Positions 2,280 to 47,212 of a stretch of DNA of 64,000 nucleotides are shown piece after piece. Within the stretch, counting starts at the first letter, position 1; every line of letters starts with the position of its first letter. Made by a program: the position numbers and the translations under genes. Under the pieces are notes generated by a model. It searched no databases. It worked only from the letters and a program-made list of their open reading frames with translations, and was not told the origin of the DNA. Source of the stretch: an uncultured Sandaracinaceae bacterium (GTDB lineage Bacteria > Myxococcota_A > Polyangia > Polyangiales > Sandaracinaceae); NCBI GenBank assembly GCA_964502175.1, contig CAZCVE010000014.1, forward strand, positions 24,969 through 88,968, written 5' to 3'.

Positions 2280-4187
2280 ATGAATCGTTCGAACGGGCCG
2301 CGCGTCGCATGCACCATGCGACATCGACAGCACCTCAGCGCTCTTCTCACCTGTCCGTTGGTCGGGACACTGTCGGCCCTCTCGCTGTCGGCCCTGACAG
2401 TCGGGGGCTGCGGCTTCAACCGCGACGACGGCTGGCTCGCGGACGAGGTCGTGAGCCTCACCGACGCGCCGCCCGCGATCCACGGCGGCACGCTGCTCGT
2501 GCTCTCGGCCCGCGCCAGCGCGCGCCCGGCGGTGATCGTCGGCGACCCGGATCGCGATCGGGTCGTGCACGTCGAGCTCGCGAGCGGCACCACGCGCGAG
2601 CTGCGGCTCACGCGCCCGTCCGATGGCTCCCACCTCGAGCTCGGCCGCATGATCGAAGACGATTCGGGCCACGTGCACGTGGTCGCGCGTCGCGCGGGCG
2701 TGGTGATCGAGATCGATCCGAGCACGATGACGGAGCTCGCGCGTCGCGACGTGTGCGACGCACCGCGCGGCCTCGCCTACGAGGCCGAGGGTGATCGCCT
2801 GCACGTCGCGTGCGCCGACGGAACGCTCGCGACGCTCGGCCCTGCGCGCGCGATCGATCGCAGCCTCCACCTCGGCGGCGATCTGCGCGACGTGTCCCTC
2901 GTCGACGGCGCGCTGCTCGTGACGCGCTTCCGCAGCGCCGAGACGATCCGCGTGCTCGCCGACGGCACCGTCGAGAGCTCGAGCGCGATGCCGATCTCGC
3001 GACTCGTCTCGCCCGCGAGCCCCGAGCTCGAGCAGACGTACGACGCGAACACGGCGGTGCGCTTGGTTGGTCTTCCGGGGGGGGTCGGTCGACCGTCGGG
3101 CGCGTTCCTCCTTCACCAGCGCGCGCGCGTGGGCCCGGAGTCGGTCGTGCGAGCGCCCACGTCGACGTACAGCTACTCGTCGCGGCCCACGTCCGATGGC
3201 TTCGTCACGTGGCAGGACCCCTGCGACAACGCCGTCGCGCACGTCACGGTGTCCGTGCTCGCGGAAGACGGATCCGCGGTGGCGGCGGGCATGCCGGTGC
3301 GGCGCGCCGTGACGCCGGTCGACCTCGCGATCTCGAGCGGAGGCCGCGTCGCGCTCGCGCTCGCCGGCGATCCGGGCGGCCGCTACAGCGCGGGCCCGCA
3401 GGTGATCTCCGCGGTGCTCGGCGACGTGATGCGGAGCGCGCGCTACCCCACCGAGTGCCTGCCGAGCGAAGAGCACCGTCAGTATCCCGGCCAGGTCGTG
3501 TCGGTCGCGTTCAGCGCGGAGACGATGGTCGTCCAGACGCGACAGCCCTCGACGCTCGTCGTCGGTGAGGGCGACGATACGCGCGTGATCGCGCTCGGCG
3601 GCGAGACCGTGACCGACACGGGTCACGCGCTCTTCCACATGGATCTCGGCGGCACGATCGCGTGCGCCACGTGCCATCCGGGCGGCGGCGACGACGGCCA
3701 CGTGTGGACCTTCATGGCCACGGGCTCGATCCGCACGCAGTCGCTCGAGGGCGTCGTGGGCCTGCCGCCCTACCACCGCGAGGGAGACGTCCCGAGCTTC
3801 GAGGCACTCCTCCGCGGCCTCGAGGCGCAGATGGACGCACCGCCGCTCGACGACGCGCGCACCGACGCGCTCGAGCGCTGGCTCGCCGCGATGCCGACCG
3901 CGCCGCAGGGCACGTCGCGCACCCCCGCGCTCGTGGCCGAAGGCGAGGCGCTCTTCGTGCGCGAGAATTGCGCGAGCTGTCACGCAGGCGAGCTCGGCAC
4001 GGATCGACGCCTCCACGAGGTCGCGGGCCTCACGCGCATCACGGCTCCCCTCGCGGGCGTCGCAGCGCGCGCGCCGTACCTCGCCGACGGTCGCGCGCGC
4101 GACCTCGAAGACGCGCTCGTCAGCCACGAGATCGAGGTCTCGGACACCGACCGCGCCGCGCTCATCGCGTACCTCGAGTCGCGCTGA
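2280..4187 (+). CDS. di-haem c-type cytochrome lipoprotein (cytochrome-c-peroxidase-like C-terminal region fused to an N-terminal beta-propeller-like domain)
   Basis: Two CxxCH haem-binding motifs (IACATCH, ENCASCH) in the C-terminal 200 aa. N-terminal signal and lipobox LTVGGCG. 635 aa. Confidence 0.7.
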   Translation: MNRSNGPRVACTMRHRQHLSALLTCPLVGTLSALSLSALTVGGCGFNRDDGWLADEVVSLTDAPPAIHGGTLLVLSARASARPAVIVGDPDRDRVVHVELASGTTRELRLTRPSDGSHLELGRMIEDDSGHVHVVARRAGVVIEIDPSTMTELARRDVCDAPRGLAYEAEGDRLHVACADGTLATLGPARAIDRSLHLGGDLRDVSLVDGALLVTRFRSAETIRVLADGTVESSSAMPISRLVSPASPELEQTYDANTAVRLVGLPGGVGRPSGAFLLHQRARVGPESVVRAPTSTYSYSSRPTSDGFVTWQDPCDNAVAHVTVSVLAEDGSAVAAGMPVRRAVTPVDLAISSGGRVALALAGDPGGRYSAGPQVISAVLGDVMRSARYPTECLPSEEHRQYPGQVVSVAFSAETMVVQTRQPSTLVVGEGDDTRVIALGGETVTDTGHALFHMDLGGTIACATCHPGGGDDGHVWTFMATGSIRTQSLEGVVGLPPYHREGDVPSFEALLRGLEAQMDAPPLDDARTDALERWLAAMPTAPQGTSRTPALVAEGEALFVRENCASCHAGELGTDRRLHEVAGLTRITAPLAGVAARAPYLADGRARDLEDALVSHEIEVSDTDRAALIAYLESR

Positions 4188-5423: not shown

Positions 5424-7244
5424 TCAGTTGGGCGCAGCGCCCGAGCCGTTGGCCCAGAGCGACGTGCGGAGGGCACCCATCTCCTGCTCGACGATGCCGA
5501 GGCGCGAGAGCGCCATGCCCGTCTCCTCGCGCACGCGACCGACCTCGGTGTCGCCGCGCTGCTGCGCGACCTTCGCGTGGCGCACGACCTCGGCCATCGA
5601 CTGGGTGAGCTCTTCGCTCGCGTTCTTCACGAAGTCGACGAGCTTGTCGCCGAACTCGTCGATCTGCGCCTCGAACGCGCTCGCCAGATCCGCGGCGGCC
5701 TTCTCCACGGCCTGCGGTGCCTCTTCCATCGCGCGCTTCTTCAGGTCGCGATCCGCGCGCTCGCGGAACACGTAGGCGAGCACCGGCGCCGCGAGCGCCA
5801 TCGCGCCGCCGACGAAGATGTTCGACACCGCCATCACCGTGAGGCCGAACGCGCCGAGCGCGATCACGCCCACGTCGTACGCGAGCGTCGAGACCTGGAG
5901 ATCGACCTTGGGCGCACCCGGGAAGGCCTCCGCGATCTTCTCGCCCTTCGCGCGCGCCTCTTCGCTCACGAACGCGATGGCTTCCTCGGCCACGCGCTCG
6001 AGGCGCTTCGCGAGCTCGAGGCCCTGACGGTCCGCGAAGTTCCTGAAGCGCTCTTCCATGAAGTTCGGGAGGTAGCGCTTGAGGTCGTCGGCCTTGCTCG
6101 ACTCGATCTCCGCGGGCAGCGAGGCCGAGAAGCGCTTGCCGAACTCCTCGCACTCCTTGCGCACCAGCGCCTTGATGCCTGCGAGCGACTCGCGGATCTT
6201 CTGCTCGCGTCGCGCGTGAGAGTCGCGCGTGCTCGACAGATCCTGCTCGAGCGTCGCGAGGCGCCTCTCGAGCTCGTCGTGATCGAGCAAGAGCGCCTGC
6301 TTCTGCACGTCGATGCCGCGGCGCAGCGTGGTCGCCGTGCGCAGGCCCTCGTCGAGGGCGTTGTCGAGGAGCACGCGGCCGCGATCCTCTTCGAGGAACT
6401 TCACGAGGTCGCGCTCGAGCGCGCCGATGCCCGACGCCTCGCGGTCACCCGCCAAGGCCTTCTCGGCGCTCACCGCGTACACGCGCGGCTCGGCGACGAG
6501 CTTCGCGAGCTGCGTCTTGGCGTACGAGAGCGCCTGCTGCTTCTCGTCGTCGTCGAGGAGATCGATCTTGTTGATGACGAACAGCACCTTGTCGCGCGAC
6601 TGGCTGAGCAGCTTGTTCGCGAGGAACGTGCGCTCGCTCTCCTTGAGGATCTGGCCCGCGTCGAGGAGGAACAGGATCGCGTCGGCCTTGGGCACGTAGC
6701 TGTACGTGATCTCGGCGCGCGTCGAGTTGAGGTCGTTCACGCCGGGCGTGTCGACGAGCACCACGCCGCCGCCGGTCGACTCTCCTTCGCCGTTGCCCAT
6801 GTTGAGGAGCGCGCTCGGGTAGTGCACCTCGAGGTAGCGCACCGAGTCGGTCGTCGCGCTGCCGCCCACCACGTAGCTGCCCACCTCGTCGAACGGCACG
6901 ATCTTCGTCTCGCCGCTCTCCATGATCGCCTTGGCGCCGCGCACGCCGTGGACCACTTGGTGGATCACGGCCGTCGTCGGCGTGACGCCCATCGGCAGCA
7001 CGGGCGCGCCGAGCAGCGCGTTCACGAACGTGGTCTTGCCGTGGTTGAACTCGCCGAGCACCACGAGGTGGAACTTCTCTTCCTCGAGACGCGGGATGCG
7101 GTCGCCGCGGAGCTTCTTCGCCAGCGTCGCAGCGCCGGTGTCCTCGGAGAGGATCGCGACCTCCCGCAGCAGATCGAGGACCTTGCCGCGCTTGGCCTGG
7201 TAGTCCGCCGCGCCAAGGCGATGAGACTCGGGAGCTTCCGTCAT
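5424..7244 (-). CDS. bacterial dynamin-like GTPase (BDLP/DynA/LeoA-like)
   Basis: G1 P-loop GEFNHGKTT, G3 DTPGVND and G4 INKID motifs. Long helical stalk and a hydrophobic paddle segment (VIALGAFGLTVMAVSNIFVGGAMALAAPVLAYVF). True start MTEAPESH at the complement of 7242-7244; the ORF table's upstream extension to 7901 overlaps the M48 gene out of frame. ATGA overlap with the upstream M48 gene. Confidence 0.85.
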   Translation of the reverse strand: MTEAPESHRLGAADYQAKRGKVLDLLREVAILSEDTGAATLAKKLRGDRIPRLEEEKFHLVVLGEFNHGKTTFVNALLGAPVLPMGVTPTTAVIHQVVHGVRGAKAIMESGETKIVPFDEVGSYVVGGSATTDSVRYLEVHYPSALLNMGNGEGESTGGGVVLVDTPGVNDLNSTRAEITYSYVPKADAILFLLDAGQILKESERTFLANKLLSQSRDKVLFVINKIDLLDDDEKQQALSYAKTQLAKLVAEPRVYAVSAEKALAGDREASGIGALERDLVKFLEEDRGRVLLDNALDEGLRTATTLRRGIDVQKQALLLDHDELERRLATLEQDLSSTRDSHARREQKIRESLAGIKALVRKECEEFGKRFSASLPAEIESSKADDLKRYLPNFMEERFRNFADRQGLELAKRLERVAEEAIAFVSEEARAKGEKIAEAFPGAPKVDLQVSTLAYDVGVIALGAFGLTVMAVSNIFVGGAMALAAPVLAYVFRERADRDLKKRAMEEAPQAVEKAAADLASAFEAQIDEFGDKLVDFVKNASEELTQSMAEVVRHAKVAQQRGDTEVGRVREETGMALSRLGIVEQEMGALRTSLWANGSGAAPN

Positions 7245-36665: not shown

Positions 36666-39600
36666 TCACGCGCGAGGGCGACCGCGCCGACCGGGCTCTG
36701 CGGGTGGGTGCGCGACGAGGAAGCGGTGCAGCGTGGCGCGGCTCACGCCGAGCGCTCGCGCGGCGTTCGTTCGGTTGCCCGCGGCGTCCGTGAGGGCGCG
36801 CTCGACGCGACGCGCCGACAGCTCGACGCGCGGCCCGCCGAGGCTGCGCTCGCTCGGCGTCGCGAGCCCCAGATCGTCGGGCTCGATCGTGTCTGACTCG
36901 GCGATGGCGCAGGCGCGTCGCAAGGCTTGCTCGAGCTCGCGCACGTTGCCGGGAAACGGATGCGCCAGCAGCGACGCGAGCGCGCGCCGCGAGAGCTTGC
37001 GACGCGGGGGCGCGAGGCGATCGAGGATCGCGCTCGCGAGGAGCGGGATGTCCGAGGCGCGCTCGCGGAGCGGCGGCAGCGACACGGCGACGCCCGCGAG
37101 CCGGAAGTAGAGGTCGCGACGAAACGTGCCGCGCTCGACCTCGTCGGCGAGCCGGCGGTGCGTCGCGGTGACGATGCGGACGTCGATCGCGATCGCGGCG
37201 CGGCCACCGACGGGCCGCACCTCGCGCTCTTGGAGCGCGCGCAGCAGGCGCACCTGCATCGACTGAGGCATCTCGCCGACCTCGTCGAGGAAGACCGTGC
37301 CGCCCTGCGCGCTGCGGAGCAGCCCGGCGTGGTCGCGCGTGGCTCCGGTGAAGGCTCCGCGCATGTGGCCGAAGAGCTCGCTCTCGAGGAGCGGCTCGGG
37401 GAGGGCGCCGCAGTTGATCGCGAGGAAGGGGCCGGTGCGGCGCGGGCTCTCGTCGTGCGCGAGCCGCGCGAAGAGCTCCTTGCCCGTGCCGGACTCGCCC
37501 TCGATGGTGACGGCGAGATCCGAGCGCGCGACCTTGCGCACGAGCTCGATCGCGGCGCGGATCGCGGGCGCGCGGCCGACGATGCCGCCCGGCGCGTCGT
37601 CGTGCGTGCCGTGGGACCCGAGGGTCGCGCGGCTCGCCAACAGCGCCGCCATGCGATCGGCCTCGAGCAGGTGCGTGCTCGCGCGCTCCTCGGCGGCCGC
37701 GCGCGAGCTCTCGGCCTCGCGCACGCGCGCCTCGCTCGCGCGATGGAGGCGCGCGTTCTCGAGCGCGAGACCGATCACGTCGGCGAACGCCTGCGCGGTC
37801 TCGGAGACCTCCGAGTCGAAGCGTCCGCGCTCGAAGCGGTGATCGAGGTAGAGCGCCCCGACGACGCCCGACGGTGATCGCACCGGGACGCACACGATCG
37901 AGCGGAGGCCGAGGTCGAGGATCGATCGCGAGCCCGCGAGCTCGGGGTCCTCCGTGGCGCTCGCGGTGACGAGCGGCTCGTTCGTCGCGAGCACGCGATC
38001 GGCGACGGAGCGGCTCATGCGAAACCGCGGCTGCTTGATCGTGTCGCGATCGAGGTTGCGCGCGACGGCGATCTCGGCGCGCTTCCCGCCGCGCTTCAGG
38101 AGGAGGAATCCCCGCTCGGCGCCCGACGCCGCGATCGCCTCGTCGAGCGCGGCCTCGAGCAAGCGTGACTCGTCGTCCTCGAGGAGCGTGCGTCGCACGA
38201 GAGAGACGAGGCGCTGGCCGACGATGCCGAGCCCGTCCGCTGCTCGCGAGCCTGCGGTCGACGTCGACGGAGCGGCGAGCGGTGCCGTCGGCGCCACGTT
38301 CTCGGTCCAACGACGTACGAAGCGCTCGCGCAGGCTCGCGGGCGTGCGCGCCGCGAGGTCACCCAGGCGGCGGCGAAACGCGGTCGTGTGCACGTCCGCA
38401 GCGCCCGTGCCGAGCTCGGCGTGCGAGCGCGCGAGGAACGCGAGCGCGTGCAGCTCTTGCTCGAGCTGCCGCGCAGCACGCGCGTGCTCCAGCGCTTCCT
38501 CGGCGAAGGTGCAGGCATCGCTGGTCCGTCGATCGCGGAGCGCGCGCGTGGCGCGGAGCACGGACGCACGCGCCGAGAGGCCCGCCTCCTCGAGCTCGGT
38601 GGACATCGTGCGTTCGAGGAGATCGTTCGCGCGGCCCTCGAGCGCGTCGATCTCCGCGAGGGCGAGCGACGCCTCGAGGGCCTGCCGCGAGGCGCCGAGC
38701 TGCGTGAACGACGTGCGCGCGGCCGCCGCGCGCTCACGCGCGGCCCGCACGTCTCCTCCATCGCGGGCCAGCTCCGCGCGCACCAACGCGACCTGTGCGA
38801 CGACCAGCGCGATGCCCGCGCGCTGCGCGACGTCGTCTGCGCGTTCGAGCAACGCGGCGGCTTCTTCGTCGGCGCGCAGGAGCTGGTGCAGGCCCGCGAG
38901 GTTGACGAGCGCCGTGGCCAGGGACGCGGCGCGACCGAGGCGCTCCGCGAGACCTGCGGCGCGCTCGTACGCCGCGATCGCTGCGTCGACGTGCCCCAGC
39001 ACGTGGTGCGCGGTCGCGAGGTTGCCGAGGTAGGGCGGCAGCGCGGAGAGATCACCCGCGGCCTCCGCGTGCGCGAGGGCGCGCGCGTGGTGTGAGAGCG
39101 CGCGCGCCGGATCGCCGCCGAGACCGGCGATCGCGCCGAGGCGGGCCTCGACGAGCGCGAGCAGCCCTCGATCGCCGAGCGACTCGGCTCTCTCTCTCGC
39201 GCGCTCTGCGCAGGCCACCGCATCTGCGCGATCTCCTCGCGCGAGCGCGACGTCGCTCGCGATCGTGTCGAGGCGTGCGCGTGCGATCGCGTCGAGCGTC
39301 GAAGGCGCGCGATCGATCAGAGCGCGCGCGAGCTCGAGCTGGCCGCGTCGGTGTGCGCTGGTCGCGCCTGCGATCAGCGCGACGGCGAGCACGTCGGGCG
39401 ACAGCTCGGGCTCGTCGAGCAGCGAGCGCGCTTCGTCGAGCGCCTCGTCGAACCGGCCGAGACGCTCGAGGAAGCGCGCCCTGTCGGCGCGATCGTTCGT
39501 CGAGCGACGAGCAGCAGCGACACGGTCGATCGCCGTGAGCGCCTGCGCGACCGATCCGACGCGACCATGGGCCCACGCCGCGAGTCGGAGGGCCTCGTCG

Positions 39601-41054
39601 TCGTCCTGGGTCTCGATCGCGGCGAGGACGGCGCGCGGAGCGTCCCTCGCCTGCGCGTCCCGCGCGCTCGATCGGCGCGCCGTCTCGTCGGGCTCGCTGC
39701 CTTTCACCGGCGTCCCGAGCACGCGTCGGAGCGCCGCTTCGAGCGACACGCCCTCGCGTGAGAGCGCGTGGAGCGCGCGGTGGATCGTCCCGCGTCGTCC
39801 GTCGGTGCGCGTGAGGATCTCGGCGCGTCCGGAGGCGTCGAGATCCACACGGGCATGCTCGAGCGCGCGGGCGAGCTCGGCTTCTTCGACGAGAGGGATC
39901 GACATCGTGAGGAGCGACGGGCTCGCGTCGCGGAGCGCACGAACGAGGCCAGGATCGGCGCCGACGATGATCAAGCTCCCGCGCGCACGACCGAACGTCG
40001 CGCGGGCTGCGGTCACGAGATCCGCGAGGAGATCGGGGCTCGCCGCGTCTGCGCCGTCGATCAGCCATCGGACCCCCGCGTCCATGGCGCGCGAGTGGGC
40101 GCGCTCGACGAGGCGCTCGCGATCCTCGGTGTGAGGCGTGTCGAAGAGCGGCGCGGTGGCAGCGAGGCCGCCCACGAGCACGCGCGCGTCGATCCGCGCG
40201 AGCGACCGCGCGCCGAGGTTGCGGTGCACGACGCGCTGCGCGAGGTGGGTCCGACCTCCGCCCGCGGCCGACGTGATCACCACGGTGCGTCCGTCGTCGG
40301 CGTCGATCGCGCGCTGGAGCTCTGTGAGCAGTCGGGTGAGCGGATCCTCGTGCTCGACCGATCGGGTCGACCTCCGCGGGAGCGCGTCGAGCTGCGCGAG
40401 CGCGACCTCGATCGACGGCGGACGTGCGCGCGGATCGATCGCGACGCACGCATCGAGGAGCCCATCGAGCCGCGCGTCGAGGCCTCTGAGGCCTGCTCGC
40501 TCGAGCGTTCGCGCGAACGCGTAGAGCTCCGTCTGCGCGCTCGTGGTGGCGCCGGCGAGGAGCTCCGGCGCGAGGAAGCCGTGCGTGCCTCCGCGCGCCG
40601 TCGCACCGAGCGGCGTCACGAGGCCGAGGTCGAGGAGGCGCACGACGTCGTGCACGTCGACGAGCACGTGCGCGGGCTTGAGATCACCGTGCACGAGGCC
40701 GCGCGACTCGAGCGCGTGCAGCGCGTCGAGCACCTGGGTCGCGATCGCACGCGCCGACTGCGCGGACGGCGCGAGGCGATCGAGCGGTGTGCCCTGCACG
40801 TCCTCGAGGACGACGGTGAGCGTGCCGTCGTCGTGTCGCGAGATCGCGTGCACCGCGCGCGACGCGGGGTGGCCGTCGAGGTCGAGCAGGAGGTTCACCT
40901 CTCGCTCGAGCGCGTCGCGCGCCGCGCCCGCGACAGCGCGCTTCACGATCACGTCGGGTCCACCCAGGCGATCGCTCGCGCGCCACACGTCCGGCCCCAG
41001 CGCTGTGTGCGAGACGAAACGATCGAGCCCGGGCCGCATGTCTCGTTGATACAA
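36666..41054 (-). CDS. multidomain sigma54-dependent activator: N-terminal (degenerate) Ser/Thr kinase domain, AAA/TPR central region, GAF, sigma54-interaction AAA+ domain and Fis-type HTH
   Basis: HGDLKPAHVLVD and DLG kinase remnants without a glycine loop. TPR-like repeats. GAF domain. GESGTGKE Walker A, GAFTGA motif and VRLLRALQERE of the sigma54 interaction domain. C-terminal HTH (NAARALGVSRATLHRFL). Confidence 0.85.
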   Translation of the reverse strand: MYQRDMRPGLDRFVSHTALGPDVWRASDRLGGPDVIVKRAVAGAARDALEREVNLLLDLDGHPASRAVHAISRHDDGTLTVVLEDVQGTPLDRLAPSAQSARAIATQVLDALHALESRGLVHGDLKPAHVLVDVHDVVRLLDLGLVTPLGATARGGTHGFLAPELLAGATTSAQTELYAFARTLERAGLRGLDARLDGLLDACVAIDPRARPPSIEVALAQLDALPRRSTRSVEHEDPLTRLLTELQRAIDADDGRTVVITSAAGGGRTHLAQRVVHRNLGARSLARIDARVLVGGLAATAPLFDTPHTEDRERLVERAHSRAMDAGVRWLIDGADAASPDLLADLVTAARATFGRARGSLIIVGADPGLVRALRDASPSLLTMSIPLVEEAELARALEHARVDLDASGRAEILTRTDGRRGTIHRALHALSREGVSLEAALRRVLGTPVKGSEPDETARRSSARDAQARDAPRAVLAAIETQDDDEALRLAAWAHGRVGSVAQALTAIDRVAAARRSTNDRADRARFLERLGRFDEALDEARSLLDEPELSPDVLAVALIAGATSAHRRGQLELARALIDRAPSTLDAIARARLDTIASDVALARGDRADAVACAERARERAESLGDRGLLALVEARLGAIAGLGGDPARALSHHARALAHAEAAGDLSALPPYLGNLATAHHVLGHVDAAIAAYERAAGLAERLGRAASLATALVNLAGLHQLLRADEEAAALLERADDVAQRAGIALVVAQVALVRAELARDGGDVRAARERAAAARTSFTQLGASRQALEASLALAEIDALEGRANDLLERTMSTELEEAGLSARASVLRATRALRDRRTSDACTFAEEALEHARAARQLEQELHALAFLARSHAELGTGAADVHTTAFRRRLGDLAARTPASLRERFVRRWTENVAPTAPLAAPSTSTAGSRAADGLGIVGQRLVSLVRRTLLEDDESRLLEAALDEAIAASGAERGFLLLKRGGKRAEIAVARNLDRDTIKQPRFRMSRSVADRVLATNEPLVTASATEDPELAGSRSILDLGLRSIVCVPVRSPSGVVGALYLDHRFERGRFDSEVSETAQAFADVIGLALENARLHRASEARVREAESSRAAAEERASTHLLEADRMAALLASRATLGSHGTHDDAPGGIVGRAPAIRAAIELVRKVARSDLAVTIEGESGTGKELFARLAHDESPRRTGPFLAINCGALPEPLLESELFGHMRGAFTGATRDHAGLLRSAQGGTVFLDEVGEMPQSMQVRLLRALQEREVRPVGGRAAIAIDVRIVTATHRRLADEVERGTFRRDLYFRLAGVAVSLPPLRERASDIPLLASAILDRLAPPRRKLSRRALASLLAHPFPGNVRELEQALRRACAIAESDTIEPDDLGLATPSERSLGGPRVELSARRVERALTDAAGNRTNAARALGVSRATLHRFLVAHPPAEPGRRGRPRA

Positions 41055-41125
41055 TAAGAAATGTCGCGAGACAATAAATGGCCCGTGATCAGGCTAGATC
41101 TCGCGGATCCGCTCGATGCGCGTGG

Positions 41126-41141
41126 TGGCACCGTGCTTGCG
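41126..41141 (+). promoter_or_regulatory. sigma54 (RpoN) -24/-12 promoter TGGCAC-N5-TTGCG upstream of the Cys-rich lipoprotein gene
   Basis: Exact match to the GG-N10-GC consensus (TGGCACcgtgcTTGCg), 33 nt upstream of ATG 41174, with GGAGG SD at 41163-41167. Divergent from a sigma54 activator gene. Confidence 0.55.
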
Positions 41142-41173
41142 GAAGGAACGCATCCCCTTCTCGGAGGTTCCTC

Positions 41174-42136
41174 ATGCGTCTCGGTCCCGCACTTCTCGCC
41201 GCCGCGTCTCTCGTCTCGCTCGCTGCCTGTCAGGCAGAGCCGCTCGGGCGGTCGGCCTACGCGGTCACGGCCTGCACCGACGACGATCTCTGCGCGGCGG
41301 GCTCGAGCTGTGTCGAAGACCGATGCCTCGAGGCGTGCGCGGCGGACGCCGACTGCCCGAGCGACGCGGTGTGCCTCGACGGCTCGTGCTGGGCTGGTCG
41401 TGGCGCGCCGTGCGAGACGGACAGCGCGTGCGGCCCGAGCATGTTGTGCGCTGCGGGCACGTGCGCGGTGTTGCCGGGCTCGCTCGCCTGCGCCGCCGAC
41501 GCGGACTGCCCCGCCGGCTCGCGCTGCGACGCGGGCGCGTGTCGCGCGTCGGTCGGTTGTGAGCCCGTCGCCGAGTCGTGCGCGAACGGCATCGACGACG
41601 ACTGCGACGGTCTCGTCGACGAGTCGTGCGGCGGTGTGTGCACGGTCGACGCGGACTGCTCGCCAGCGCAGGTCTGCGCGATGGGCGCGTGCGTCACGTC
41701 GGGGCCCGAGTGCACGACCGACACCGACTGCGGCACGGACAGCGTGTGCGTCGCAGGGAGCTGCGAGAGCCGCGGCCCCGTGTGCAGCGCCGACGACGAC
41801 TGCGGTGCGGGCCAGGTGTGTGTCTCGGGTGTGTGCTCGGGTGAGCCCATGTGCAGCGCCGAGGTCTGCGGCAACGGCGTGGACGACGACTGCGATGGCC
41901 TCGTCGACGACGAGTGCGGCGACGTGTGCGCGACGGACAGCGACTGCGCCGCGGGGCAGGCGTGCATCGCCGGGTACTGCGGGACCGCGCCTTCGTCGTG
42001 TCGCTCGAGCGCGGAGTGCGCGGCGGGCCAGGCGTGCGTGGACGGCGTCTGCACGGTCGAGGGCGACTCGTGCAGCGCGGACACCGACTGCGCCGCGGGC
42101 CAGGTCTGCATGTCGGGCGTGTGCACGAGCGCGTGA
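41174..42136 (+). CDS. secreted Cys-rich repeat lipoprotein with DDDCDG putative metal-binding (MopE-like) motifs
   Basis: Signal and lipobox LVSLAACQA. Repeated DxDCxxGxxCxxGxC modules. Two CxNG(I/V)DDDCDGLVDExCG motifs. Confidence 0.75.
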   Translation: MRLGPALLAAASLVSLAACQAEPLGRSAYAVTACTDDDLCAAGSSCVEDRCLEACAADADCPSDAVCLDGSCWAGRGAPCETDSACGPSMLCAAGTCAVLPGSLACAADADCPAGSRCDAGACRASVGCEPVAESCANGIDDDCDGLVDESCGGVCTVDADCSPAQVCAMGACVTSGPECTTDTDCGTDSVCVAGSCESRGPVCSADDDCGAGQVCVSGVCSGEPMCSAEVCGNGVDDDCDGLVDDECGDVCATDSDCAAGQACIAGYCGTAPSSCRSSAECAAGQACVDGVCTVEGDSCSADTDCAAGQVCMSGVCTSA

Positions 42137-42196
42137 CGCGATCGCCGATCGACTGACCACGCGCTCGCTCGATCTGTCAGCCTGGAGACGCTCCTC

Positions 42197-42832
42197 ATGC
42201 ACCCACGAACGAACGATCGCTCCGTCACTCGCGCCCTCCGGCGCACGCTCGCGGCGCTCGTCGTCTCGTGGGGCCTCGCGGCGTGTCTCGCGACGCCGAT
42301 CCCCGATCCGCCCTCGCTCGAGGTGAGTCGCATGATGCTCGTGCAGGCGAGCGCGAGCGAGGTGCGCATCACCGGCAGCATGGGCGCGGTGCGGCCCGGC
42401 GGTCGTGCGCTGCGGGTGACGAACCCTGCGGCGCCAGCGATGACGGCGAGCGTCGCGATCTACACGGCGGCCGATGGCTCGTTCGGCGCCACGCTCGCGG
42501 GCACCACGGCGGACACGCTCTTCCTCGAGGGACTCAGCGACACCGCAGACACGTTCGAGGTGGCGGTGCGCCTCGAGTCAGGCAGCGTCGTGAGCACGAG
42601 CGCCGGTGGTGATCGTGATCTCGACGGCTCACCCGACATGATCGACTGCGCGCCCGACGATCGCATGCAGAGCGGTCAGCGCTGCGGCATGGCGTGCGCC
42701 ACCGACACGGACTGCGCGGCCGGTCAGATCTGCGTGAGCGGGCTCTGCACGGTCTCGATGTGCGACGTCGCAGAGATCTGCGGCAACGGCACCGACGACG
42801 ACTGCGACGGCCTCACCGACGACGGCTGCTGA
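42197..42832 (+). CDS. lipoprotein with C-terminal Cys-rich/DDDCDG metal-binding-like motif
   Basis: Lipobox LAACLA. C-terminal CATDTDCAAGQICVSGLC and CGNGTDDDCDGLTDDGC. Confidence 0.7.
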   Translation: MHPRTNDRSVTRALRRTLAALVVSWGLAACLATPIPDPPSLEVSRMMLVQASASEVRITGSMGAVRPGGRALRVTNPAAPAMTASVAIYTAADGSFGATLAGTTADTLFLEGLSDTADTFEVAVRLESGSVVSTSAGGDRDLDGSPDMIDCAPDDRMQSGQRCGMACATDTDCAAGQICVSGLCTVSMCDVAEICGNGTDDDCDGLTDDGC

Positions 42833-42835
42833 TCG

Positions 42836-43303
42836 TCAGTCGACGACGAGCGGCGACTCCTGATCGAGCACCCACGTGCCGAGGTACGGATACGTCGTCC
42901 ACTGCCCTTGGTAGGCCTGGTACGCGATGTACGCGGGGTAGAGGACCGAGAGGATCCAGCCCACGACGAACAGCGGGATGAGCGGCACGAGCAAGATCAC
43001 GCCGACGCCGCACGTCACGAAGTAGAGAAAGAAGAACACGAGCGCCGAGACGATCTGGATGCTCGACAAGAGCGCTTGGAACCACGCGGCCTGGTTCACG
43101 TGGAAGAGCACGAACGGGTTGCGGCTCGAGTTGAAGACGAGCACCAGCGTCGGCGCGGCCACGGGGAAGAGCACGCCCGCGGTGACGAGCCCGACGACGG
43201 CGCCGAGGAGGTGTGCCAGCGCGGCGTGCGTGCGGTCTTCGGAATTCTGGAGCGTCTGGGCCGCGAGGGCGGTGTCCATCGCCGTGCGAAACGGTGCGGG
43301 CAT
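42836..43303 (-). CDS. small integral membrane protein (DUF4870-like)
   Basis: Three or four TM helices; HVNQAAWF-type motif. Confidence 0.6.
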   Translation of the reverse strand: MPAPFRTAMDTALAAQTLQNSEDRTHAALAHLLGAVVGLVTAGVLFPVAAPTLVLVFNSSRNPFVLFHVNQAAWFQALLSSIQIVSALVFFFLYFVTCGVGVILLVPLIPLFVVGWILSVLYPAYIAYQAYQGQWTTYPYLGTWVLDQESPLVVD

Positions 43304-43356
43304 GCGCTGACGATAGCAGCGCGGGCTCGGTGTTCGCTCAGAGACGCCTCACACGT

Positions 43357-43638
43357 TCACTCGCTCACTCGGGCCCGGCTCTCGGCCAGCACGAGGTCGA
43401 GCAGTGACCGCGCGAGCGTGTCGGGCACGTTCGATCCGCGCGCGACCGACAGCCAGTGCTGACGAACCACGGCTTCTCGCGCGTCGTCGACGCGGCTGAG
43501 GCCGAGGCGCGCCTTGGTCTCTCTCATCCTCGCCACCAAGGCGCGTCGACGTCCGAGCGCTTCGAGGAACGCGCGATCGATCGCATCGATCTCGTGGCGC
43601 ATCGCGTCGATCGAGTCGTCGGGTCTCGGGGCGGACAT
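43357..43638 (-). CDS. chorismate mutase (AroQ class, monofunctional)
   Basis: 93 aa all-helical; RHEIDAIDRAFLEALGRRRALV signature. Confidence 0.7.
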   Translation of the reverse strand: MSAPRPDDSIDAMRHEIDAIDRAFLEALGRRRALVARMRETKARLGLSRVDDAREAVVRQHWLSVARGSNVPDTLARSLLDLVLAESRARVSE

Positions 43639-43713
43639 CGACCAGGGCTACCACACCGCCTCCCCGCTCGCGGTGCTCACGCGCCGTGGTGTGGTCACTG
43701 GTATCCTCGCGGA

Positions 43714-44616
43714 ATGCTCGAGCGGGTGGTTCGCGAGGCCTATCGACGTGAGCAGCTGCCCTCTGCGGTGCTGTGGACGCTCGCCGCCGATGGCATGCAC
43801 GCCTGGTACGCGATGCTCCGCAAGGGGCTCACGCCCGTGGTGGGATCACGCGAGCGCGCCGAAGAGGAGATCGTGAACGCGGCGACGATCGCGTACCGCA
43901 AGCGCTGGGCGAGCTTCGTGGAGCGTCATCCGAAGATCGATCGGGACGAGCAGCAAGCGGCGCGTGTGCTCGGTGCGCTGTCGATGGTGGCGCGCGATCC
44001 GAAGCGACGTGCGTGGCCGTTTCGCGGGCTCGGAGGTGCGGCGCCCACACGTCGACGCGATCACCTCGCGGTGGAGTGGGCGCTGCGCGACGTGCCCGTG
44101 ATCGATCGCTGGCACGAGGTGACGACGCACCTCGGCGAGATCCTCATCGCGCTCACGCAGACGCTGCCGCAGGCGGTGCCCACGGGCGCGAACGCGGCGC
44201 TCGGACAGATCTGCTTCGAGGGCGGACGCGCGAGCGCTGCGCAGGCGAAGAAGATGTTCGCGCTGCCGGACGCGCCCGAGAGCGCGATCGAGGTGCTGCG
44301 CATGAGCGAGTACGTGTTCCGCGTGAACCCGCACCACTGGCACGAGGCCGACGCGGCCGCGAACACGGGGATGATCGAGGGGACCGCGTGTCCGTGGTTC
44401 ACGTCACCCGGCTGGTCGATGATGCACTGCGGGATCTTCGGCCAGTTCCAGGCGGGCATCTCGTCGGTGTTCGGCCTGCGCTACCAGCTGACGAAGACGA
44501 TCCCCAAGCACGGCGGCACGACCTGTCGGATCGACCTGCGTCCCCTCAAGCGCAAGGACGGCTCGAACGTGGCGCTGCGTGGCTCGAGCGTGGCGCGGGG
44601 CGGACCGACGACGTAA
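43714..44616 (+). CDS. hypothetical protein
   Basis: ATG 43714 (MLERVV). The upstream part of the listed ORF is low-complexity. Confidence 0.5.
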   Translation: MLERVVREAYRREQLPSAVLWTLAADGMHAWYAMLRKGLTPVVGSRERAEEEIVNAATIAYRKRWASFVERHPKIDRDEQQAARVLGALSMVARDPKRRAWPFRGLGGAAPTRRRDHLAVEWALRDVPVIDRWHEVTTHLGEILIALTQTLPQAVPTGANAALGQICFEGGRASAAQAKKMFALPDAPESAIEVLRMSEYVFRVNPHHWHEADAAANTGMIEGTACPWFTSPGWSMMHCGIFGQFQAGISSVFGLRYQLTKTIPKHGGTTCRIDLRPLKRKDGSNVALRGSSVARGGPTT

Positions 44617-44632
44617 TCACCGCGCCCCCACG

Positions 44633-47212
44633 ATGAGCACGCCCCGCACGCGTCCCGAAGTCCTCGCGCCTGCTGGCGATCGCGCCGCGCTCGAGGCCGC
44701 GATGCGCGCAGGCGCGGACGCCGTGTACTTCGGCCTCGGGCAATTCAACGCGCGCGCGCGGGCCGCGAATTTCGATGAGGCGGGGCTCGCGGAGATCCTC
44801 GCGGCGCTCCACGCGCGCGGCGTGAAGGGCTACGTGACGCTCAACACCTTGGTGTTCGATCACGAGCTCGCCGCGATGGAGTCTGCGATCCGAGCGTGCG
44901 CGCGCGCCGGCGTCGACGCGGTGATCGTGCAGGACCTCGGCGTGCTCGCGATGGCGCGCGCCCTCGCGCCGGGCCTGCGCCTGCACGCGTCGACGCAGAT
45001 GACGTGCACCGACGCCGAGAGCGCCCTCTTCGCGAAGGACCGTGGCGTGAGCCGCGTGGTGCTCGCGCGTGAGCTGGGCGTCGAGGAGATCGGCGCGATC
45101 CAGCGCGAGTGCGATCGTCAGGGTGGCCTCGAGCTCGAGGTGTTCGTGCACGGCGCGCTCTGCATCGCGTACTCGGGGCAGTGCCTCACGAGCGAGGCGA
45201 TCGGTGGGCGCAGCGCGAACCGCGGCGCGTGCGCGCAGGCGTGTCGGCTGCCGTACACGCTCGTCGTGGACGGCGTGAAGCGCGAGCTCGACGAGCGCGC
45301 CTACCTGCTCTCGCCCGAGGATCTCGAGGCGAGCGACGTGGTGCCCGAGCTCGCCGAGATCGGCGTGAGCTCCCTCAAGATCGAGGGGCGCCTCAAGGGG
45401 GCCGCGTACGTCGCGAGCACGACGCGCCTCTACCGCACCAGCATTGACGCGCTCGAGGGCATCGACGCGCTCGAGGGCATCGACGCGCTCGAGGGCGACG
45501 GCGGTCGCGGGATCGCGCGGGACGCGGCGCGCACGGAGGCGCTCCAGACCTACTCGCGCGGATCGGGGCCGGGCTTTCTTCGCGGCGTCGATCACCAGCG
45601 CCTCGTCGAGGCCCGCGGCTGCGATCACCGAGGGCTGATCGCGGGCACGGTGCGCGCGATCGAACACGACGGTCGTCGGGTGCTCGTCGGCCTCGAGCGC
45701 CTCGAGACGCGCGTCGCGCGCGGCGATGGCCTGTTGATCGAGGGCGGCCTCGGCGGCGAGGGCGAGCTCGGCGGTCGTGTCTGGGCGATCGAGACGCGCG
45801 CGCCGGGCGAGCGCGCGTTCCGCGACGTGGAGCACGCGGAGATCGGCAGCGTGGCGCGCGTGTGGCTCGGGCCCGATCGCACACCGGGCGCGTCGCTCGT
45901 GGGCCGCCGCGTGTTCAAGAACGACGACCCCGCGCTCGAGAAGGCCGTGCTCGCGCGCATCGAGCGCGACCCGCACCGCGAGCCGATCGCGATCACGATC
46001 ACGGGCGAGAGCGGCGCGCCGTTCGTGCTGCGCGCGACGAGCAAGCGTGGCCTCACCGCCGAGGTGACCGGCGACGCGATCGTGGATCGCGCGCGGAACC
46101 GCCCGTTGGACGGACAGGCGATTCATGCGGCGATGGAGCGCCTCGGCGAGACGACGTTCGTGCTCACGTCGCTCGACGTGCAGCTGCCCGAGGATCGCTT
46201 CCTCCCGATCTCGTCCTTGCACCGCGCGCGTCGCGCGCTGACGGATGCGCTGACGCACGCGGCGGCGCGCTCGATCGAGACGACGTCGATCACGGCGAGC
46301 GAGCTCGTGTCGCGGGCGCTCCCTCCGGATCGCGCCGTGCCGGCCGCGGGCCTCTTCGTGTTGTGTCGCACGCTGCCGCAGGCGCGCGCTGCGATCGCTG
46401 CGGGCGCCGATGGCGTGTACCTCGACTTCCTCGAGCTCACGGGCACGGGGCAGGCGCTCCGCACGCTGCGAAGCGAAGGCGCGGCGTTCGTCGGCGTCGC
46501 GCCGCCGCGGATCCGCAAGCCCGGCGAGGAGAAGATCCAGAGCTACCTCGACTCGCTCGCGTCCGACGCGGTGCTCGTGCGCGGCCTCGGACATCTGCGC
46601 GAGGTCGGGCGTGCGCGCGCAACACGATCCGCCGGATCACCCTGTTTCGTGGGCGATTTCTCGCTCAACGTGACCAACCGGATCAGCGCGAGCGAGATCC
46701 TCGCGGCGGGGCTCGATGCGTTCGTGCCGTCGTTCGATCTCGACGCGACGCAGCTGCTCGGCCTCGTGGGCTCGCCGTTCGGCGCGTGGGCCGAGCTCGT
46801 CGTTCACCACCCGATGCCGCTCTTCCACATGGAGCACTGCGTGATCGCGGCGCTGCTCTCGGACGGGCGCGATCACAAGACGTGCGGGCGTCCGTGCGAG
46901 AAGCACGTGATCGGCCTCCAAGATCGCGCGGGCATGGAGCACCCGGTGGAGGCCGACGTCGGCTGCCGCAACACGGTGTTCCACGCGCACGCGCAGTCCG
47001 CCGCGTCGCTCGTGCCGCGCGCGATCGATGCGGGCGTGAGGCGCTACCGGATCGAGCTCGTGCGCGAGAGCGAGGCCGAGGTGCGTCGCATCGTGACCGC
47101 GTACCGCGCGCTCCTCCGCGGCGAGAGCTCGCCGTCCGAGCTCTTGAAGGCCGTGCGCGCCGAGGGCCACTACGGCGTGGTGCGCGGCTCGCTTCGGGTG
47201 CTCGGCGCGTGA
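44633..47212 (+). CDS. peptidase U32 family protein (collagenase-like) with C-terminal extension
   Basis: U32 signature region (ELEVFVHGALCIAYSGQCLTSE...RSANRGACAQACR). 860 aa. Confidence 0.85.
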   Translation: MSTPRTRPEVLAPAGDRAALEAAMRAGADAVYFGLGQFNARARAANFDEAGLAEILAALHARGVKGYVTLNTLVFDHELAAMESAIRACARAGVDAVIVQDLGVLAMARALAPGLRLHASTQMTCTDAESALFAKDRGVSRVVLARELGVEEIGAIQRECDRQGGLELEVFVHGALCIAYSGQCLTSEAIGGRSANRGACAQACRLPYTLVVDGVKRELDERAYLLSPEDLEASDVVPELAEIGVSSLKIEGRLKGAAYVASTTRLYRTSIDALEGIDALEGIDALEGDGGRGIARDAARTEALQTYSRGSGPGFLRGVDHQRLVEARGCDHRGLIAGTVRAIEHDGRRVLVGLERLETRVARGDGLLIEGGLGGEGELGGRVWAIETRAPGERAFRDVEHAEIGSVARVWLGPDRTPGASLVGRRVFKNDDPALEKAVLARIERDPHREPIAITITGESGAPFVLRATSKRGLTAEVTGDAIVDRARNRPLDGQAIHAAMERLGETTFVLTSLDVQLPEDRFLPISSLHRARRALTDALTHAAARSIETTSITASELVSRALPPDRAVPAAGLFVLCRTLPQARAAIAAGADGVYLDFLELTGTGQALRTLRSEGAAFVGVAPPRIRKPGEEKIQSYLDSLASDAVLVRGLGHLREVGRARATRSAGSPCFVGDFSLNVTNRISASEILAAGLDAFVPSFDLDATQLLGLVGSPFGAWAELVVHHPMPLFHMEHCVIAALLSDGRDHKTCGRPCEKHVIGLQDRAGMEHPVEADVGCRNTVFHAHAQSAASLVPRAIDAGVRRYRIELVRESEAEVRRIVTAYRALLRGESSPSELLKAVRAEGHYGVVRGSLRVLGA
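45446..45496 (+). repeat. in-frame 18-bp tandem repeat x2.8 (gacgcgctcgagggcatc) encoding DALEGI repeats inside the U32 peptidase
   Basis: Direct reading of the sequence: IDALEGIDALEGIDALEG. Confidence 0.9.

Follow-up and report, generated by a model that had tools for sequence, protein, structure and literature searches.

A conserved sigma-54 promoter and a candidate enhancer between a giant activator gene and a divergent lipoprotein operon in an uncultured Sandaracinaceae bacterium

Does a giant sigma-54 activator control the lipoprotein genes encoded divergently to it, and what is the role of the AT-rich tract that lies between them? The question is raised by a 64,000-nucleotide stretch of contig CAZCVE010000014.1 from an uncultured Sandaracinaceae bacterium (hereafter the window), in which the start codons of the activator and of a Cys-rich lipoprotein (lipoprotein 1) are 134 bp apart and face away from each other across an intergenic gap at 41040-41173. 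The G+C content of the window is 70.5%. An earlier note on this DNA had proposed a sigma-54 (RpoN) promoter, an AT-rich binding site and a self-contained regulator-target unit. The reading favored here, and judged fairly probable when all its parts are taken together, is a compact divergent sigma-54 unit that would combine the promoter, an enhancer within the AT tract, an A/T-docking tail on the activator and autoregulation.

The promoter is the firmest part of this reading. Positions 41126-41140 match all ten specified letters of TGGCAC-N5-TTGC, with GG at 41127-28 and GC at 41139-40, and the C of the -12 GC (41140) is separated from the lipoprotein 1 ATG (41174) by 33 nt. The 64 kb contain no second exact match on either strand; in dinucleotide shuffles, the mean is 0.08, and 8 of 100 shuffles include at least one. 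The coordinates and the 33-nt distance of what the earlier note called a textbook RpoN element are thus exact. The base after TTGC is G (41141) instead of the W of TTGCW, a minor consensus position.

Orthologous loci were collected in two ways. A scan with the activator N-terminus, using one genome per species, returned one clear ortholog (L001, 68% identity), with the divergent pair as in the window, and one distant ortholog (L002, 40% identity), which has the same architecture but a different Cys-rich lipoprotein. A search with the downstream gene, lipoprotein 2, returned 23 relatives, and their contigs supplied seven further distinct loci: L161 (identical to L162 and L163), L164, L166 (identical to L165), L167, L168, L169, and L170. 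Together with the window, these form a set of ten loci; L159 is the window’s own sequence, and L160 and L171 stop short of the control region. The N-terminal 700 residues of the activator have no match at E ≤1e-20 among 5.8 billion proteins, and a metagenome scan with an alignment of the kinase domain recovered only generic kinases of ≤40% identity. L001 (CBDEVG010000045.1) is a Polyangia-type module with 72% GC in a record labelled as an Amaricoccus sp. metagenome-assembled genome (MAG).

The best sigma-54-like match of each of the ten control regions is found immediately upstream of lipoprotein 1. Nine of the ten have a GG-N10-GC element with at least four of the six other consensus letters, 24-46 nt ahead of that gene’s ATG; the background rate of such elements across the same loci is 1.6e-4 per position, which amounts to ~0.007 in a 40-nt zone. 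The spacer differs among loci (cgtgc, cctgc, tccgc, ccggc), and the letters of the -24 and -12 motifs are retained. When compared with L001, the window differs at two of the 51 positions that run from TGGCAC to the ATG and at about half of the positions in 41080-41125. This conservation is far beyond chance, even allowing for the relatedness of the loci. Judged by its letters and their retention, the sigma-54 promoter is a real one that has been conserved among the orthologs, and an equivalent element does recur at homologous lipoprotein genes, a point on which the earlier note had suggested a check; dependence on sigma-54 itself we infer. A GGAGG-type Shine-Dalgarno sequence precedes lipoprotein 1 in all ten loci. 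The leader RNA matches no Rfam family, and its folding is not better than that of shuffled sequences (z ~0.5); on these grounds a structured RNA or riboswitch in the leader was rejected.

The genes on either side of the promoter also stay together. The order of activator, divergent lipoprotein 1 and lipoprotein 2 is kept in all ten loci, whereas the genes flanking this trio are not the same in different loci; the three genes therefore behave as one unit, much as the earlier note’s self-contained regulator-target unit would require. The pairing of regulator and target is well supported by this conserved gene order. A DUF4870 gene (42836-43303) is convergent with lipoprotein 2, and the presumed lipoprotein operon therefore consists of two genes (41174-42832). 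In the window (42836-47212) and in L161 (8250-11618), the genes for DUF4870 (MamF_MmsF-like), a chorismate mutase (CM_2) and a collagenase-like Peptidase_U32 follow in the same order, an arrangement that the other orthologous loci do not share.

The signal sequence of lipoprotein 1 reads …SLVSLAAC, and its repeats contain CxNGxDDDCDG. These features, a lipobox and DUF7107/Myxo_Cys_RPT repeats, bear out the earlier note’s description of a secreted Cys-rich lipoprotein; the metal-binding motif that was part of that description corresponds to a match below threshold to the MopE ‘putative metal-binding motif’. Orthologs of lipoprotein 1 differ in length (252-394 aa; 272-394 aa in the window at 41174-42136, L001 at 3030-3848 and L161 at 5714-6898) because Cys-rich repeat units have been gained and lost, and the signal peptide and first ~100 residues are nearly constant.

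The candidate regulator is a bacterial enhancer-binding protein (bEBP) with an intact GAFTGA loop that is encoded divergently to the sigma-54 element. Its domain order is kinase-like, degenerate AAA/TPR region, GAF, sigma-54 AAA+, Fis-type helix-turn-helix (HTH) and a short basic tail with an RGRP core. Pfam places the kinase-like domain at residues 29-177, weak AAA_22 and TPR matches, GAF at 958-1093 and the sigma-54 interaction domain (Sigma54_activat) at 1153-1319 (E 2.9e-66), and the AAA lid is also matched. The protein carries GAFTGA (at 37358), Walker A (GESGTGKE) and Walker B (DEVGE) motifs, and among the window’s proteins GAFTGA occurs only here. The HTH motif GNRT.AA.ALG[VI]SR.TLHR is conserved in orthologs. 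The earlier note was right about the divergent orientation and the kinase/TPR/GAF/sigma-54-AAA/HTH domains, but its length of 1462 aa counts from a TTG at 41054. That start is rejected in favor of the ATG at 41039, which is used in a public assembly and agrees with ortholog N-termini (MRPG... in L164, MAHG... in L001); the ATG, giving 1457 aa, is the likelier start. The kinase-like domain (40500-41039, residues 1-180) has HGD for HRD and DLG for DFG and lacks a GxGxxG loop, and it may be a pseudokinase that serves as sensor or scaffold. In L001, the activator frame is broken near ~5278, probably by an assembly indel; the gene is called as one short gene in L165 and as two overlapping calls in L166.

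Where this activator would bind is suggested by the AT-rich tract at the far end of the gap. The AT-rich string gatACAATAAgaaatgtcgcgagACAATAAatgg occupies 41048-41081; it is as striking as the earlier note held for DNA of more than 70% GC, although it had been placed 14 nt away, at 41062-41095. All ten control regions contain an equivalent island, with a minimum GC of 0.20-0.43 compared with 0.65-0.75 for the loci. A five-way alignment reveals one solid upstream block, AA(A/G)TGTCG...GACA.T, which is the strongest footprint of the upstream half, and the conserved letters include the G/C-containing core TGTCGCGAGACA, not A/T runs alone. When the ten upstream halves were searched without bias for the k-mer that they best share, ATGTATCA, AAATGTCGCG and TCGCGAGACA emerged, with a total distance below that of all 20 shuffles. 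When the block is modelled as the dyad AAATGTC-N4-GACAnTT (14 letters, 4-nt spacer), a match of at least 11/14 is found once in each of five loci, always in the control region (164 kb scanned in ten loci), and in unrelated loci there are 10 matches in 969 kb. No further good match exists elsewhere in the 64-kb window or in the orthologous loci, so a regulon reaching beyond the local unit was rejected as far as these sequences extend. The matches in the five loci score 12-13/14, compared with a variant spacing or a weaker match in the five more distant loci.

The earlier note had pointed to an ACAATAA repeat as the possible activator-binding element. The second ACAATAA copy is ACAGTTA in L001 and ACAGTTT in L161, the first copy is absent in L161, and the heptamer is not among the top shared k-mers; it was therefore discarded as a recognition element. 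The broader proposal of an activator-binding site in the tract fares better, with a conserved dyad at a typical enhancer distance. The A/T-flanked TGTC-N4-GACA dyad, in two copies, is most likely the candidate functional element, in place of ACAATAA or a site for integration host factor (IHF); the IHF consensus WATCAANNNNTTR has no match with ≤1 mismatch in any of the ten control regions, and the IHF alternative of the earlier note falls with this result.

Second, poorer copies of the site, 21-35 bp farther from the promoter, are found in the window, L001, L161, L170 and L166; those in L170, L161 and L166 have the form AAATGT(C/A)(G/T)C and are 22-35 bp away from the first copy. The centre of the main site, counted from the predicted transcription start, falls at -84.5 in the window and L001, -73.5 in L161, -74.5 in L164, about -75 in L166 and L169, and -97.5 in L170. 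Both window sites (-84.5 and -105) fall within the ~70-150 bp upstream range for bEBP enhancers. According to one paper (PMC7910581), enhancer-binding protein sites precede the -12/-24 regions by 80-150 bp; the main-site centres, ~61-85 bp from the -12 GC, are at or just below that range. In these few lineages, the centres differ by steps of ~10 and 13 bp, close to whole turns of the helix. Two other structures in the gap were considered. A perfect 10-bp palindrome, GCGGATCCGC, lies at 41103-41112 between the tract and the sigma-54 element, and a terminator-like hairpin, GCCTGATCACGGGC followed by CATTTATTGT, can be drawn on the minus strand at 41094-41081, its T-run being the AT tract itself. 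Both were rejected as functional elements; they are unconserved in L001 and probably arose by chance.

In the proposed mechanism, sigma-54 RNA polymerase would bind TGGCAC-N5-TTGC at 41126-41140, start near 41152 and transcribe the two-gene lipoprotein operon into an mRNA with a predicted 22-nt leader and a strong Shine-Dalgarno sequence. Dimers of the activator would bind the main tract site (41059-41076, about -85) and the weaker one (41038-41056, about -105), and the AAA+ ring would use its GAFTGA loops to contact the closed promoter complex and open it. We infer the enhancer step because of site position, dyad symmetry, conservation and the conserved gene order. The RGRP tail would dock as an AT-hook into the minor groove at the A/T runs (AAAT / AATAAAT) that flank TGTC/GACA; this is the least certain step, and it would explain how an island of 30% GC survives in a genome of 70% GC. 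The tract would also contain or overlap the activator’s promoter and 5' end, and bound activator would probably limit its own synthesis, by analogy with pspF.

The activator side of the tract bears on this last step and on the best-surviving alternative. The tract begins 7 nt from the activator ATG, the site copies lie 0-40 nt from the same ATG, and no Shine-Dalgarno sequence precedes it in the window and in most orthologs. The AT island adjoins the activator start codon in nine of ten loci; in L164, where the activator has an AAGG ribosome-binding site, it is ~40 nt away. With the tract beside an ATG that lacks a ribosome-binding site, the activator promoter must overlap the tract if these features are read correctly, and the activator mRNA probably has little or no leader. 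TATTGT, which fits TANNNT, occurs twice on the activator strand, at 41056-51 and 41076-71. The window, but none of L001, L161 and L170, agrees with a leaderless sigma-70 model (TTGTCT-N17-TATCAA, +1 on the ATG). It is most likely that the tract also serves the activator’s own expression. Since the sites overlap the activator promoter and start codon, self-limitation by bound activator would be expected, and by analogy the activator probably does limit its own synthesis.

It is unlikely, though less so than the alternatives that follow, that the tract is nothing but the activator’s sigma-70-type promoter and near-leaderless 5' end, with no enhancer role. The sigma-54 promoter would then still be real, and the activator would bind elsewhere or need no DNA binding. 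The proximity of the tract to an ATG without Shine-Dalgarno sequence and the two TANNNT hexamers speak for this account, and AT-rich promoter regions are normal in high-GC genomes. On the other hand, the conserved TGTC-N4-GACA dyad with its flanks resembles a protein-binding site, not promoter hexamers, and the distance from site to activator ATG shifts over 11-50 nt, whereas that from site to sigma-54 start stays at 73-98 nt. An enhancer bound by the activator and overlapping the activator’s own promoter is the most likely identity of the tract.

A much less probable role for the tract is that of a bending site, either for IHF or another nucleoid protein or as an intrinsic bend, that would help a more distant or unidentified enhancer. 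The tract is AT-rich, its A-runs are ~20 bp apart, and many promoters of the sigma-54 type rely on IHF or on DNA curvature (PMC7910581). Against this stand the missing IHF consensus, the G/C letters within the conserved core and the position of the tract at the far end of the 134-bp gap, with activator coding sequence beyond it and little room for a farther enhancer. Least probable of all is that a sigma-70-type promoter in the tract mainly drives the lipoprotein operon and the sigma-54 match is incidental or secondary, for although TTGATA-N18-GACAAT (41046-41075, plus strand, 9/12) is the one site of the promoter scan, where shuffles give 0.1, its hexamers decay in L001 (GTGAGA / GACAGT, 7/12) and are rearranged in L161, while the -24/-12 element is kept in nine of ten orthologs.

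The tail of the activator adds a possible second contact with the enhancer. The protein ends …HPPAEPGRRGRPRA, directly after the HTH, with an RGRP core flanked by basic residues; relatives have RGRPR, RGRPK or MGRPR. A variable linker followed by (R/K)xGRP(R/K) also ends the activators of L001, L161, L170, L166 and L167, and six of seven complete orthologs have an RGRP(R/K) tail. In a HMMER pass with the last 75 activator residues against 1.84 billion representative proteins, the RGRP tail is kept in nine of ten subfamily relatives (P0024, P0025, P0064, P0080, P0100, P0073 and the fragments P0091, P0049 and P0081) after an otherwise unconserved linker. None of 30 other bEBP C-termini in the fetched loci, wider kinase-fused giants included, has such a tail. 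An RGRP core also forms the AT-hook with which WhiB7 of high-GC Mycobacterium binds A-tracts (PMC10245118). A full-text literature search on AT-hooks in sigma-54 enhancer-binding proteins listed no paper in which the term AT-hook occurs. Support for minor-groove binding consists of the co-occurrence of the tail with an AT-flanked site. From this, a tentative picture can be drawn of a two-part reader, in which the Fis-type HTH would recognize the TGTC-N4-GACA dyad and the C-terminal AT-hook the A-tracts, within an autonomous and portable three-gene sensor-output cassette of Polyangia. In P0107, an unrelated-looking bEBP, RKRGRP stands immediately N-terminal of the HTH; RGRP motifs beside Fis-type HTHs may therefore extend beyond this activator subfamily.

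Several observations weigh against the divergent unit as proposed. The tract could be merely the activator’s own promoter, as set out above, and no -35/-10 pair for the activator holds across orthologs or is found on the minus strand by the promoter scan, a result that also counts against the own-promoter account. Conservation of the dyad is inflated by shared descent, because the window, L001, L170 and L161 are close relatives, and the distant orthologs, with related motifs at other spacings, make a weaker case. For DNA looping, a centre at -85 is on the short side, and no IHF site or conserved bend element separates it from the promoter. At 1204-1218, L164 reads CGGCACcggccTTGA, with TTGA for TTGC at -12 and without the invariant GC; this promoter could have decayed, or the MAG could contain a sequence error. 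The tail is missing from L002 and P0087, yet L002 has the AT-rich tract, and the Pfam AT_hook model does not match the activator even at E ≤10, a weak test for so short a motif. The 64-kb window contains no RpoN box, and rpoN is assumed from taxonomy; it is expected in the genome because enhancer-binding proteins are abundant in the phylum and sigma-54 is essential in Myxococcus xanthus (PMC12316311).

The closest parallel is pspF-pspABCDE of Escherichia coli. There, the enhancer lies ~80-130 bp upstream of the sigma-54 start and overlaps the pspF promoter, which allows self-limitation; PspF lacks a sensory domain and is under the control of PspA, and an IHF site is present in the control region. 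The present locus likewise has a bEBP gene divergent from a sigma-54 target operon across one short intergenic region, and its candidate enhancer sites would overlap the activator’s own promoter region, with autoregulation as the expected consequence. Unlike PspF, the activator has ~1150 residues of kinase-like/TPR/GAF input, the control region has no IHF consensus, and the targets are Cys-rich lipoproteins. Fusions of kinase domains to sigma-54 activators are reportedly found in Polyangia, according to the Sorangium cellulosum genome and myxobacterial kinome studies. The activator shares their N-terminal eukaryotic-like kinase and C-terminal sigma-54 AAA+ and HTH, and differs from most of the fetched kinase-fused giants in its own HTH, RGRP tail, target genes, site and divergent sigma-54 promoter.

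Two further systems illuminate the DNA side. In M. xanthus, the sigma-54 promoter consensus is TGGCACG-N4-TTGC(T/A), and the half-sites of Nla28, CT(C/G)CG(C/G)AG, are G/C-rich and often intragenic (PMC7910581). The NtrC-like activators of M. xanthus, such as Nla28, share with the present one a phylum-level setting with many enhancer-binding proteins and an essential sigma-54 (PMC12316311), the promoter consensus and paired upstream sites. Unlike Nla28, the activator described here is not a response regulator, and its candidate site is an A/T-flanked TGTC-N4-GACA dyad that is truly intergenic. In WhiB7 of Mycobacterium tuberculosis, a C-terminal RGRP AT-hook docks in an A-tract beside the main recognition point (PMC10245118). 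The activator resembles WhiB7 as a high-GC regulator with a C-terminal RGRP and a conserved AT-rich patch in GC-rich DNA, its putative AT-hook role being read from motif and conservation. WhiB7 partners sigma-A region 4 at sigma-70-type promoters and lacks the HTH and AAA+ domains of the activator.

The arrangement as a whole is that of a familiar divergent sigma-54 unit, to which the sequence adds three new features: a specific site, a conserved cassette of three genes and an AT-hook-like tail on the activators of this subfamily. Myxobacteria have dozens to a hundred sigma-54 activators, and to our knowledge very few of them have known targets or binding sites. Here, sequence evidence alone ties one activator subfamily to a promoter, a candidate enhancer and a two-gene output across ten genomes or metagenomes. 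If the RGRP tail docks on the A/T flanks, a minor-groove reader would be added to the DNA recognition of enhancer-binding proteins, this would be the first AT-hook-assisted bEBP, and AT islands in GC-rich genomes would become a simple rule for spotting such sites. If it does not, the locus would be an ordinary divergent sigma-54 unit. The features discussed are collected in Table 1.

Table 1. Features of the control region and adjoining genes in the window, with the corresponding motifs of orthologous loci.
Feature	Locus	Position	Strand	Sequence or description
Giant activator gene	Window	36666..41039	-	1457 aa from ATG at 41039-41037; translation, Pfam, NCBIfam
C-terminal AT-hook-like tail	Window	36669..36692	-	GRRGRPRA, residues 1450-1457, read from translation
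HTH_8 (Fis-type)	Window	36723..36818	-	Residues 1408-1439, recognition helix ...LGVSRATLHRF; Pfam
AT-rich island	Window	41033..41083	.	Only 30-nt windows with GC ≤40% in 64 kb
Distal, weaker site copy	Window	41038..41056	.	ATGTCTCGTTGATACAATA / gcATGTCTCGTTGATACA, 8/14, centre ~-105; overlaps activator start codon 41039-41037
Direct repeat	Window	41048..41077	+	GATACAATAA (41048-57) and GAGACAATAA (41068-77), 20 bp apart; right-hand parts of the two site copies
Proximal 18-bp inverted repeat	Window	41059..41076	.	AAATGTC GCGA GACAATA, 12/14, centre -84.5; candidate core of an upstream activating sequence
Sigma-54 -24/-12 element	Window	41126..41141	+	TGGCACcgtgcTTGCG; TGGCAC 41126-41131, cgtgc, TTGCG 41137-41141
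Predicted transcription start	Window	41152 (A)	+	12 nt past C of -12 GC; standard sigma-54 geometry; 22-nt leader
Shine-Dalgarno sequence	Window	41163..41167	+	GGAGG, 6 nt before lipoprotein 1 ATG
Lipoprotein 1	Window	41174..42136	+	320 aa, lipobox LAAC, Cys-rich DUF7107/Myxo_Cys_RPT repeats with CxNGxDDDCDG motif
Lipoprotein 2	Window	42197..42832	+	211 aa, without Pfam family; second gene of presumed operon
-24/-12 element	Window			TGGCAC..TTGC
-24/-12 element	L001			TGGCAC..TTGC
-24/-12 element	L161			TGGCAC..TTGC
-24/-12 element	L170			TGGCAC..TCGC
-24/-12 element	L169			TGGCTC..TTGC
-24/-12 element	L167			TGGATC..TTGC
-24/-12 element	L168			TGGCAT..GTGC
-24/-12 element	L002			TGGCAT..GTGC
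-24/-12 element	L166			TGGCAA..CTGC
-24/-12 element	L164			CGGCAC..TTGA (without GC)
Dyad	L001			AAATGTC GCGA GACAGTT, 13/14
Dyad	L161			AAATGTC GCGA GACAGTT, 13/14
Dyad	L170			AAATGTC GCGA GACAATA, 12/14
Dyad	L164			AAGTGTC GTCT GACATTT, 13/14
Variant motif	L166			AAATGTATC, twice; TGT-N5/N7-ACA
Variant motif	L169			TGTACGCGATACA
Variant motif	L002			TGTATC-N6-GATACA
Variant motif	L167			GATAC-N7-GTATC
Second site copy	L001			ccATGTCGC..GAGACA; overlaps activator start codon, as in the window
Second site copy	L161			AAATGTATCAGCATTT
Second site copy	L170			AAATGTCGCGACGAT
Second site copy	L166			AAATGTATCAGACA

Beyond this subfamily, the fetched Polyangia and Planctomycetota loci encode ~35 wider giants that join a kinase domain to a sigma-54 AAA+ domain. 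Most of these kinase-fused giants have an HTH of another type (..LTRHGLKKRM..) and no RGRP tail, and the ~35 that were checked do not share a divergent sigma-54 promoter ~90 nt from the start. They were not used for footprinting because neither the promoter nor the tail is shared. In the distant loci L006, L007/L008, L019, L039 and L046, a sigma-54-like element lies 50-150 nt upstream of the kinase-bEBP gene and in the same orientation, a hint that some kinase-fused giants are themselves transcribed by sigma-54 polymerase.

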